Positions 37,231 to 43,742 of a DNA stretch of 43,944 nt are shown piece by piece. Where the stretch lies: positions 1 to 43,944 of the forward strand of contig JBJOKS010000035.1 in the NCBI GenBank assembly GCA_046045965.1, given 5' to 3'. The DNA comes from Cyanobacteriota bacterium (GTDB lineage Bacteria; Cyanobacteriota; Cyanobacteriia; Cyanobacteriales; Nostocaceae). Below the pieces are notes generated by a model. It searched no databases. It worked only from the letters and a program-made list of their open reading frames with translations, and had not been told where the DNA came from. How positions within the stretch are numbered: the stretch's first letter is position 1; every line of letters starts with the position of its first letter. The translations under genes were made by a program, and so were the position numbers.

Positions 37231-39039
37231 TTATCCTTCTATCGCCTCTTTAACCCATTGTTTGAGGGTATTTACAACTTCCTCAATGGCAATTTCTTGA
37301 GATTCACGGTTTGCCCGTTTTACTACTTCAACTTTACCATTAGCGATCGCTCTACCTGTAACTATTCTAAAAGGAATGCCAATTAAATCAGCATCTTTAA
37401 ATTTTACACCTGCTCGTTCATTGCGGTCATCCAGCAAGGTTTCGACACCTGCTTTATTTAGTTCTGTGTAGAGTTTCTCAGCTATTTCTACCTGTTGTGT
37501 GTCGTTGACATTGGGAATGGAAATAATAGCGTGATAAGGTGCGATCGCTACTGGCCAAATTATCCCATCTTTATCATAAGATTGCTCAACCGCAGACTGT
37601 GCTAAACGTGATACACCTACACCATAACAACCCATCACCAAAGGTTTTTCTTCCCCTTGTTCATTCGTATAAGTTGCACCCATCGCTTGAGAGTATTTTG
37701 TACCGAGTTGGAAAATGTGACCGGCTTCGATACCTCTAGCTGTTTGTAGAGTTTGGGTTGGATCATGAAGAGAGCGATCGCCTACTTTTGCTTTCCGAAT
37801 ATCTACTACTAATTCAGGTAACTTAAATTGCTCATCCCAATTTGCACCAACAACATGAAAACCGCTGTCATTTGCACCAGTGACAAAATTCTTTAACTCC
37901 ACAGCAGTTTGATCAACCAACCGCAAAAACTGAGAATTTACCTGCTTACTTCCCGCAATATAATCATCACCTAAATCTGGAGAAATATAACCCAAAGGTA
38001 AAGATTTTGCTGCCCAGGTTGCAATTATTTCATTAGTGGGTACACTCAGAGAAAGAATAGTTTTAGCACCAAAATTATCAGCTAACTTAGTCAACTCATT
38101 TTGTAATTTGACTTCATTAACTTCCTGATCACCGCGAATATTCACCAACACCAAAACAGTCAAACCATTATCATAAACAATTTGATATAAAACGTTTTTG
38201 ACAATTTGGGTAGGAGAACAGTTTAAGAATTTACAGAGTTTTTCAATTGTATCAGTTCCCGGAGTTTCCCGTTTTTCAAAAGTAGTAAAAGCTGAAATTT
38301 CCGCATCCGCAGGTAAAGAAACAGCCTTTTCTACATTCGCTGCATATTTCCCATCTTCAGTGTAGAGAACTTCATCTTCACCCGCATCTGCTAACACCAT
38401 AAACTCTGTCGAACCAGAACCACCGATCGCACCAGAGTCAGCTTCCACCGCACGAAAAGCCAAACCAGAACGGCGTAGCATATTACTGTATGCTTGGTAC
38501 ATATCCTGGTAAGTTTTCTTTAAACTTTCCTCATCAGCATGGAAAGAATAACCATCCTTCATGATAAATTCTCTACCCCGCATTAAACCAAAACGAGGAC
38601 GAATTTCATCACGAAATTTAGTTTGAATTTGATATAAATGTACTGGCAATTGCCGATAGGAACGAATCATATCACGAGCAACTGTTGTAATTACTTCCTC
38701 ATGAGTAGGACCTAAACCTAATTGTTGTTCTCTTCTATCAACGAGGGAAAACATAATCCCCTCAGCTTTAGTATAAGTATCCCATCTTCCCGACTCCTTC
38801 CATAACTCAGAAGGTTGTAACTGAGGTAACAAACATTCTTGTGCGCCGGTGGTGTTCATTTCCTCCCGTACAATTTGGGAAACCTTCTGTAAAACTCGCC
38901 ACATTAAAGGAAGATAAGCATAGACACCGCTACCGATGCGACGGATATAACCTGCGCGAAGTAAGAGTTTATGACTGGGAATTTCCGCATCTGCTGGCTC
39001 ATCCCGGAGTGTAACAAATAACATTTGTGATAGTCGCAT
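37231..39039 (-). CDS. proS: Proline--tRNA ligase
   Basis: [35 protein letters not shown] and MGCYGVG motifs. Confidence 0.98.
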
Positions 39040-39277
39040 CGTTTTTTCCTTTATTGCTAATTTGTTTATAAAGCAGATGACAGTAAATCAATCGCAACTA
39101 TATAAACATCTATAATTGCCTAACACTTCTAATTTTGTCCTACTTTTTGCATCTTTGGAGTCACCATAACAGTTACACTGCAATTGGTATGACCTCAGCT
39201 AAAAGCAGAAACAGAATATATATTCTATAAGGCAATTTTCTATAAGGCAATTTGCGGCCTTTGCAAGCATCGGATAA

Positions 39278-39362
39278 CGGAGAGGGGGGGATTCGAACCC
39301 CCGTTGAGTTGCCCCAAAACGCATTTCGAGTGCGTCACCATCAACCACTCGGACACCTCTCC
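39278..39362 (-). tRNA. tRNA-Ser (anticodon CGA)
   Basis: Minus strand GGAGAGG acceptor, ACGCA-CTCGAAA-TGCGT anticodon arm, long variable arm, GGTTCGAATCC. Confidence 0.96.
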
Positions 39363-39438
39363 AAACATTTATTCACACAATTAACAGAATTGGTTGAACA
39401 AAGGTCTTGATATTATAGCATATTCATTGATTAATTTA

Positions 39439-41946: not shown

Positions 41947-42432
41947 TTACAAAGATATACCTAAATTAAATCCTAATACAGCATGAACAAACAAAATTAA
42001 CAGTGCTGTACTTCCCAAATAAGCATGAACCACCCGCAAACCTGCTTTATCGCCAAAAAATCCACTCAGAGAAATTGCACCATTAACCAACAACAGCAAC
42101 AGTACAATAGAACCAGTCCAAAAATGAGGACTTTCAAACAGTGGTTTATGCTGCATCACCAAAGACAACACACCACCTGTATAACCACCCGCCAAGAATA
42201 CAAATAACCAAGGTGCTAACTGACGATGGGCGCTTCTACTTTTAACAGCAGCATCCTTATCTGTATCTTGCAGTAGTTTACCTCGCCAACCAGACACACC
42301 GACAAAACTACCCACGACCAAAATCACAATACCCATCATCACCGGATGTCCCCAATGTACAACAGGTTCAGGAACACCCAAAGAACGAAACCAAGCCGCA
42401 ATAGGTTCTAAAGCTTCATTTATATTTATCAT
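41947..42432 (-). CDS. DUF4079 family membrane protein
   Basis: HWGHP, HRQLAP, ESPHFWTG and HAYLG; four His-bearing TM segments. Confidence 0.85.
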   Translation of the reverse strand: MININEALEPIAAWFRSLGVPEPVVHWGHPVMMGIVILVVGSFVGVSGWRGKLLQDTDKDAAVKSRSAHRQLAPWLFVFLAGGYTGGVLSLVMQHKPLFESPHFWTGSIVLLLLLVNGAISLSGFFGDKAGLRVVHAYLGSTALLILFVHAVLGFNLGISL

Positions 42433-42600
42433 CTGACACACACCATTATTTTTGTCACGAACAGCAACTCCCCCAAAAAGGAGGAGTTACAAAAATTTAC
42501 ACTTTGCTTATTCTATCTCGTTACAAGGCTCTGCCTGGTAACGAATATCTAGATGCTCTGCATCTTCGTAAACAAGAATTAAGCAGCAGCAAAAGAAAAA

Positions 42601-42688
42601 TGAACCCCGTTCGCGCAGCGTCCCGTTAGGGATAGAAACAAAGGACACGAAGAAAAGAGGGTTTCAGAGATATTGTCCGTAAGTCCTG
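42601..42688. repeat. Partial MITE copy with nested small dispersed repeat
   Basis: Ends in CGTAAGTCCTG like element 291-375 and contains GTTCGCGCAGCGTCCCGTTAGGGA. Confidence 0.55.
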
Positions 42689-42704
42689 TTAAATAGGAGA
42701 TTTA

Positions 42705-43742
42705 TTACCGAAATAACGAGAGAATTACCCAAATTGCATAAGAAGCAATTGGAATCCAGAACAGCAAGTCAATAATATAACGGTAATCGAATTGATCTAC
42801 TGGCTTGGAAACTAATTCTTGAGGCATTTTTGGTACAACAGGTGCTAAAACAGATGGCTGTATAACTGGTTGTGAATTTTTCAACAACGGGAAACCCAGC
42901 TTTTCCCTTTGCTCAACATATAAATGAGCCACTTTCCTCGCCAAATGCCGAATCCTCGTAATGTAGCGCGTCCGTTCCGTCACCGAAATTACACCGCGTG
43001 CATCCAGCAAATTAAACGTATGGGAACACTTAATCACATAATCCATGCTAGGTAACACCAGTCCCCTTTCTGTAAGTTGGGATGCTTCCTGCTCATATAT
43101 ATTGAACAAATTCAGCAACATCTCAGGATTCGACGCTTCAAAGTTATAAGTACACTGCTCAATCTCACCCTGAAGATGAACATCACCATAAGTAATGTTT
43201 TCCGTCCACTGGATCTTAGTAATAGCCTCCACTTGTTGAAGGTACATAACTAGTCGCTCCAACCCATAAGTAATCTCAATGGAAACAGGACGGCAATCAA
43301 TACCCCCGCACTGTTGGAAATAAGTAAACTGGGTAATTTCCATCCCATCTAACCACACTTCCCAACCAGTACCCCAAGCCCCCACCGTTGCATCTTCCCA
43401 ATTATCCTCCACAAACCGCACATCATGGTCTTCTGGACGAATACCCAAAGCCCTCAAAGAATCAAGATAAATTTCTTGGATATTATCTGGTGAAGGTTTA
43501 ATCAGAACTTGATATTGATAATAATGTTGAAACCGATTCGGGTTTTCCCCATAGCGCCCATCTGTAGGACGACGACAAGGTTCAACGTAAGCCACCGCCC
43601 AAGGTTCTGGACCCAAAGCCCTTAAAAAAGTATGGGGGTTCTTAGTTCCTGCTCCCTTCTCCATGTCATAAGGTTGAGCAATCAAGCAACCACGCTCACC
43701 CCAAAACTGATGTAAAACCGCTATTACTGACTGAAAATTCAC
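42705..43742 (-). CDS. glyQ: Glycine--tRNA ligase alpha subunit with C-terminal extension
   Basis: [35 protein letters not shown] and [11 protein letters not shown] motifs; the core ends at LGFPLLK. Confidence 0.98.

Follow-up and report, generated by a model that had tools for sequence, protein, structure and literature searches.

A C-terminal linker and hydrophobic helix common to GlyQ and SerRS within one family of cyanobacteria, a candidate CAAD-independent tail anchor

The glyQ Locus and Its Extended Product

The window analyzed here is a stretch of 43,944 nucleotides from a cyanobacterial genome (G000, 92% complete). Towards its end it carries an elongated gene for the alpha subunit of glycyl-tRNA synthetase (GlyQ), followed on the same strand by a terminator-like hairpin and a DUF4079 gene:

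42705-43742, minus strand: GlyQ open reading frame, 345 aa (ORF call and translation)
42879..43742, minus strand: GlyQ catalytic core, aa 1-288, GTG start (TIGR00388 and PF02091)
42879..42914, minus strand: normal GlyQ end peptide, 12 residues, aa 277-288 (also in tail-less relatives and solved chain 8ie2_B)
42786..42878, minus strand: Pro/Gln/Val-rich linker, aa 289-319, predicted disordered (coil, pLDDT <50)
42708..42785, minus strand: C-terminal helix, aa 320-345, with hydrophobic core aa 323-344, candidate transmembrane anchor (AF2, hydropathy and dN/dS)
42702..42707, minus strand: two TAA stop codons (sequence)
42468..42486, minus strand: terminator-like hairpin downstream of glyQ (consensus scan; alignment with G001 and G002)
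41947..42441, minus strand: DUF4079 gene, downstream neighbor of glyQ (PF13301)

The TIGR00388 glyQ model matches aa 1-288 with 530 bits against a cut-off of 361, which places the protein among the GlyRS alpha subunits, and tRNA-synt_2e (PF02091, aa 3-280) is the sole Pfam domain in it. A preliminary description of this DNA had proposed that the GlyQ frame continues past its normal end into a linker and a hydrophobic tail, and the end of the TIGR00388 match at residue 288 bears this out; its account of the tail was otherwise right and omitted only the seven residues DQFDYRY between linker and hydrophobic part. The extension (aa 289-345) measures 57 aa and consists of a 31-aa linker and a 26-aa end piece with Arg as the last residue. 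Alignments to solved GlyQ chains reach mostly to aa 277-292, and to 308 for one fused enzyme. A tblastn search found a single glyQ in G000, so the sole copy bears the tail.

Hydropathy was read from the Kyte-Doolittle scale only. The best 19-residue window scores 2.12 (aa 326-344), versus 0.84 in the GlyQ core, and by hydropathy alone the protein has a single C-terminal hydrophobic helix and none elsewhere, which is the anatomy of a tail-anchored protein. The AF2 model (12 sequences) is poor overall, with a mean pLDDT of 42.9, and was read locally; it gives coil through the linker and a helix at 320-344 with block means of 67-81, its best-scored part. The helix contains a Pro, a Ser and a Tyr, and the alignment of tails has invariant positions P-I-x2-Y-x2-W-x3-S. 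Its summed insertion score is -0.14 in the G000 GlyQ and ranges from -1.7 to +0.4 across copies (simplified scale). Net charge directly before the helix is 0 to +2, which is compatible with a cytoplasmic N-terminus and no more.

In the alignment with the tail-less same-genus relatives G001 and G002, a stretch related to the hairpin is present, at which the tail allele has its right edge; the DUF4079 gene follows glyQ in G001, G002 and also G003. Just past the stop codons, at about 42590-42700, lies a short dispersed repeat with dozens of genomic matches at 75-90% identity. Two further neighbors within 5 kb of glyQ, a tRNA-Ser(CGA) at 39277-39363 and a 602-aa ORF in the 37231-39363 region that resembles a prolyl-tRNA synthetase, are probably there by coincidence.

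The Tail Is Not an Assembly Artefact

The GlyQ tail is real rather than an assembly error, since three runs not flagged as the possible source (X3, X4 and X5) yielded contigs that span it entirely and without gaps; this speaks against the sequencing error considered in the preliminary description. The X3 contig (DNA) covers 42454-43276 with 12 differing letters, none of them inside the tail among the differences listed. The X4 contig (42608-43143) joins core and tail with 0 differences and comes from an RNA library, which is no proof of transcription or translation; that of X5 (DNA, 42619-42921) likewise shows 0 differences. Run X6 left the tail uncovered. Beside its tailed contig, X5 also yielded contigs that skip the tail (42445-42876 and 42590-42870), so that this sample holds both tailed and tail-less glyQ ends, perhaps from different organisms. 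When the stop codons of 2434 long frames in the genome were read through, 169 gave at least 50 aa and none gave a 50-80 aa extension ending in a window with KD >=1.9. Since no comparable ending occurred among these frames, the tail is more than chance.

Distribution Across the Family

Of the 389 family genomes searched, 50 gave a match to the tail DNA at E <=0.01, many of them weak, and 45 a match to the tail profile. Dropping two weak matches with no synthetase end ahead of them (G112 and G193) left 43 genomes, and the other 346 show no tail copy. Two 17-residue matches (L174 and L175) and weak tail-DNA matches were also dropped, and G292, whose gene is truncated close to the end of a contig, was counted as intact. 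The 43 genomes hold 44 tail copies, 27 on GlyQ (17 intact, 10 broken) and 17 on seryl-tRNA synthetase (SerRS; 11 intact, 6 broken), the latter a host that the preliminary description had missed, as it had the breakage of more than a third of all copies. The 28 intact copies occur in 7 genera, and two further genera hold broken copies only; named records with the tail include Trichormus (Trichormus sp. NMC-1, on GlyQ), Nostoc (Nostoc favosum CHAB 5714, on SerRS) and Dolichospermum (Dolichospermum planctonicum NIES-80, on SerRS). Every intact copy (28/28) has a KD19 of 1.85-2.42, and linker length varies from 24 to 36 aa.

Within the genus of the source genome, G003 has the tail DNA with one extra base (+1 frameshift) ahead of the helix, and G001 and G002 are tail-less and end in NAVS-stop. 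Likewise, among the 30 best glyQ loci from 61 genomes the tail is intact in the source genome alone. The preliminary description had regarded a tail absent or frame-disrupted in all close relatives as evidence against it; the three same-genus relatives (3/3) indeed lack an intact tail, yet the intact copies extend over seven genera. An order-wide sample of 401 genomes, 373 of them outside the family, gave one weak, stop-containing match (G431, E 4e-4), which was dropped. Among the families searched, the tail is thus confined to one.

A library of 1.84 billion proteins returned 3 matches, all C-terminal pieces of GlyQ or SerRS, and a search of longer proteins gave 3 matches with the class II synthetase domain PF00587, two of them also with PF02403, among 8000 candidates scored. 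In the family genomes and these libraries we found neither a host other than GlyQ and SerRS nor a stand-alone form of the tail; both libraries mask tails behind tail-less representatives, and other hosts are possible. A protein search with the tail region returned nothing, the cluster representatives being shorter (301 aa) and likely masking tailed members, and the ESM Atlas gave no usable match. None of the named records seen in clusters of tailed GlyQ mentions a tail, so that annotation conceals it. The literature searched, mostly outside subscription papers, yielded no report of a GlyQ or SerRS tail, and an earlier mention is possible. The tail module shared by GlyQ and SerRS in this family is real and, as far as searched, undescribed.

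The Same Tail on SerRS

On SerRS the tail is again C-terminal and follows a junction peptide like that of GlyQ. TIGR00414 confirmed the SerRS identity of two tailed copies. In the tailed SerRS of genus g82, YFQQGEKLGFPSL stands ahead of the linker, parallel to the GlyQ junction, and 9 of the 10 tail-less SerRS fetched end in YLGRE[VI]L-stop. The corresponding end peptide is native to GlyQ, as it is kept in tail-less relatives and in the solved chain 8ie2_B of another bacterium. Therefore, glyQ was most likely the donor of the module and serS the recipient. The SerRS copies stand apart from the GlyQ copies in the tail tree, and one transfer would thus suffice.

The tenth tail-less SerRS, from G313 (L206), ends in YFQQGEKL-stop, apparently a scar left by deletion of the tail; the GlyQ tail of the same genome is intact. 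In G264 the GlyQ tail is intact and that of SerRS broken. No genome has both tails intact, but as fewer than one such genome is expected by chance if g82 comprises about 140 genomes (a guessed size), we do not claim mutual exclusion.

Selection on Helix and Linker

For the 26 helix codons of the intact copies, the codon model gave an omega of 0.53 (p 0.005 against 1). The SerRS helix alone had an omega of 0.35 (p 0.007), the GlyQ helix alone 0.67 (p 0.16, not significant) and the GlyQ helix of genus g82 0.85 (p 0.7). The linker is at about 1 (0.9-1.7) and the enzyme cores are at 0.06-0.08. The helix is under weak purifying selection and the linker evolves neutrally, with the proviso that the set of intact copies is by definition a selected one.

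The tail tree was also used for a neutral simulation. The 18-column core of the helix, which was picked after viewing the alignment and omits a conserved Asp, contains 0 D/E/K/R/N/Q/H states versus 5.0-5.7 expected (P <=0.008), and there are five invariant columns versus about 1.2 expected. Extra states by codon position number 20/9/22, second positions changing least. For minimum hydrophobicity the excess over the simulated values is not clear (P 0.04-0.15). Compared with the 60 bases past the stop, the tail has diverged about 2-3 times less in 5 of 6 groups. The chemistry of the helix is thus constrained, which is clearer for SerRS than for GlyQ; the linker is constrained only in staying open.

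These data bear directly on the main rival to a CAAD-independent anchor, namely that the tail is a tolerated, nearly neutral extension, formerly useful or never so, that is now decaying and may be membrane-sticky without anything depending on it. It would account for the 16 broken copies among 44, the neutral linker, the GlyQ helix omega that does not differ from 1 and the absence of the tail from most relatives; moreover, when the helix core was simulated neutrally, 7.5-14 of 28 tips held a stop, which is of the same order as the broken share. It accounts poorly for a core without charged or strongly polar residues, for the conserved second codon positions and for the omega of the SerRS helix. 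Differences in linker length are multiples of three, whereas the flanks show 1-, 2-, 4- and 11-base gaps, an argument that is partly circular, and persistence on a second essential gene would be hard to explain by drift alone. Taken together, we regard neutral decay as unlikely.

Breakage and Spread of the Tail Allele

Eight single-lesion events, one of them from a metagenome contig, all fall ahead of the helix (P about 0.01 relative to mutational opportunity, in a post hoc test with events grouped by eye). One serS codon varies among genomes and reads CAA, CGG, CCA, TAA, TAC or TCA. The TCA and TAC junctions (L038 and L039; G273 and G245) sit among TAA copies on a weakly supported tree, which hints that the tail was reopened there. 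The breakage pattern suggests an optional trait, but decay fits it as well.

Tailed genes do not group together in the glyQ tree but are dispersed among tail-less genes that share a common short end such as NAVS, NTVS or DTVS. Tailed and tail-less serS alleles of g82 rejoin at flanks that are 93-98% identical. Synonymous divergence of the tail is 2-5 times below that of the cores of the same genes, and the correlation between tail and core distances is 0.73 (rho, n=24) across genera and 0.21 within g82 (n=17). This pattern fits recombination that swaps 3' alleles, mainly between kin; vertical inheritance with many losses may explain it too. All of these are single-gene trees with weak deep nodes.

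Low synonymous divergence could also mean that what is conserved is DNA or RNA, such as a repeat or a structured element, with the open frame being incidental. The same low divergence fits recent allele exchange, though, the folding z-score is -1.59, there is no Rfam match at gathering level, the tail is single copy in the genome, and second codon positions are the most conserved. As a variant, the conserved product could be a separate 40-aa protein. The preliminary description had considered a fusion to a 40-aa ORF starting MPQELV, but its internal Met is missing in the other 17 alignment rows and no stand-alone form turned up. Either version seems very improbable to us.

Relation to CAAD and Pmp3

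According to PMC4893482, CAAD consists of two transmembrane helices and a C-terminal coiled coil, anchors ValRS to thylakoids and is dispensable for catalysis. It was found there in seven class I synthetases (ValRS, IleRS, LeuRS, GluRS, ArgRS, MetRS and CysRS) among 279 genomes and in none of the class II or oligomeric enzymes (PMC4893482).

The tail is not CAAD. It has one helix followed by a stop and gave no PF14159 match at E <=10, while the same model recovers 3 true CAAD in this genome. All 18 members compared (18/18) were without any Pfam match, PF14159 included. The remark in the preliminary description that SYAIW loosely recalls the GYxxW of CAAD does not hold up either, as hhalign of the helix against CAAD gave a probability of 1.7% over 9 columns, with a CAAD alignment that is shallow and mostly Curt1-type.

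A resemblance to the second helix of Pmp3/YqaE (PF01679) is seen in the spacing W/Y-I-P-x3-Y/H-x2-W-V-I and extends ungapped over 17 columns (hhalign E 0.007); the D-x4-I-P spacing and the Y-x2-W motif recur in CAAD as well. The helix could accordingly be a remnant of CAAD/Curt1, or of the second helix of Pmp3/YqaE, and hence no new domain. The match to Pmp3 is not significant (hhalign probability 5.6%), however, and the first Pmp3 helix is absent from the tail. Neither family gave a Pfam match, one of the genome's own Pmp3 ranks 17th of 5013 scored matches to the helix profile (E 6), the CAAD motifs sought did not show up under that profile, and no donor DNA was found in the genome. We consider a remnant origin unsupported and improbable; that the tail was born de novo is possible. 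The two next-best matches of the helix profile in this genome look like chance, the better one being antisense to another ORF.

Some matches to these families merit separate mention. A Pmp3 match inside a 370-aa open frame (G039:C39:30960-31100) is a possible fusion. Genus g82 has extra CAAD matches in frames of about 200-750 aa, neither Curt1- nor ValRS-sized, some of which may be CAAD fusions (among others, G216:C30:280221-280472, G245:C2:873046-873294, G313:C120:5665-5880 and G303:C200:780-1028).

Candidate Membrane Anchoring of GlyRS and SerRS

Bacterial tail-anchored proteins have a soluble N-terminal domain, a linker and one C-terminal hydrophobic helix with almost nothing after it, and tailed GlyQ is built alike. 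We think that the tail is probably a dispensable, CAAD-independent single-helix tail anchor for two oligomeric class II synthetases. The independent single-helix anchor put forward in the preliminary description fits what was found, with a tail kept across genera, a helix under selection and a helix predicted at aa 320-344, and it stands as a candidate. In the literature searched we found no example of a tail-anchored synthetase.

In the proposed mechanism the soluble GlyQ core would be made first, then a flexible linker of 24-36 residues and finally a single hydrophobic helix some 22 residues long, which no more than one or two residues follow. Insertion of this helix would be post-translational, leaving the enzyme on the cytoplasmic face, and the GlyRS complex would charge tRNA beside a membrane. 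Each oligomer would carry two anchors on flexible linkers. The likeliest membrane would be the thylakoid, solely by analogy with CAAD-ValRS. At least once, a copy of the module, along with the final GlyQ codons, would have passed from the 3' end of glyQ to that of serS. The tail would be an optional allele, with tailed and tail-less 3' ends coexisting among close relatives, and stops or frameshifts preceding the helix often disable it. We infer membrane insertion, the membrane concerned, the benefit, the direction of transfer and horizontal spread from these sequence patterns.

SerRS is a dimer. GlyRS is a hetero-oligomer (PMC4893482), and with both hosts being oligomers the helix might be selected for something other than simple anchoring: it could bind a partner, pair with the helix of the other subunit or mark the enzyme for a membrane protease that tunes its level. 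The invariance of P, I, Y, W and S goes beyond the specificity that a plain anchor requires, and CAAD itself binds ATP synthase according to the same source. The length, terminal position and lack of charge are traits of a tail anchor, though, and no partner gene was identified; a FemAB-type transferase does not track the tail. We judge such a role to be quite unlikely. A link to tRNA-dependent transferases was rejected likewise, FemAB (PF02388) being present in 2/18 genomes with an intact tail versus 6/22 others (one with a broken tail). This family is patchy (8/40 genomes); G000 has one such gene (L217, 355 aa, G000:C2:211339-212226) between two overlapping ORFs, while a search of this genome, which is 92% complete, found no PF09924.

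A candidate anchor on GlyQ and SerRS shares several features with the CAAD synthetases. In both, a housekeeping enzyme without a paralog found gains a hydrophobic module with a patchy spread, and the module occurs on several synthetases and may pass between them, as PMC4893482 suggests for CAAD. Unlike CAAD, the tail of GlyQ and SerRS is one helix, strictly C-terminal, often broken and has no stand-alone homolog found, and its hosts are class II and oligomeric, the group without CAAD in that survey. The tail does not replace CAAD-ValRS, as the ValRS of G000 also carries CAAD and the genome has both; CAAD matches in frames of about 1000 aa occur in at least 23 of 44 genomes searched, these frames being putative ValRS. 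According to PMC4893482, GlyRS and SerRS were soluble in Anabaena PCC 7120, a strain that may or may not carry the tail. ValRS has been placed in heterocyst honeycomb membranes (PMC11500504). A membrane-linked class II synthetase domain has precedent in LysX (LysRS-MprF) and ErdS (AspRS-DUF2156), which are tied to membrane chemistry (PMC9437257). Those are fusions to a lipid aminoacyl transferase, however, whereas tailed GlyQ is without a second catalytic domain of the MprF/DUF2156 kind.

The 2016 survey (PMC4893482) reports CAAD in monomeric class I enzymes only, and proposes that oligomers are hard to anchor. As a bolder scenario, which we hold tentatively and at somewhat less than even odds, filamentous cyanobacteria may have invented membrane anchoring of synthetases twice, the second time without CAAD: a cassette of one helix, which possibly arose de novo at the 3' end of glyQ, would move between strains and genera by allele exchange, would have jumped to serS, would be switched off (perhaps on) by single mutations ahead of the helix, and would place the Gly and Ser class II oligomers at the thylakoid, next to CAAD-ValRS. 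Close relatives hold tailed, broken and tail-less alleles, and the 57-residue piece is removable; the reason why some cyanobacteria tether synthetases to membranes is therefore directly testable. If true, the presence of an unrelated anchor on a pair of class II oligomers would mean repeated selection for membrane-side tRNA charging and would lift the limit proposed for oligomers.
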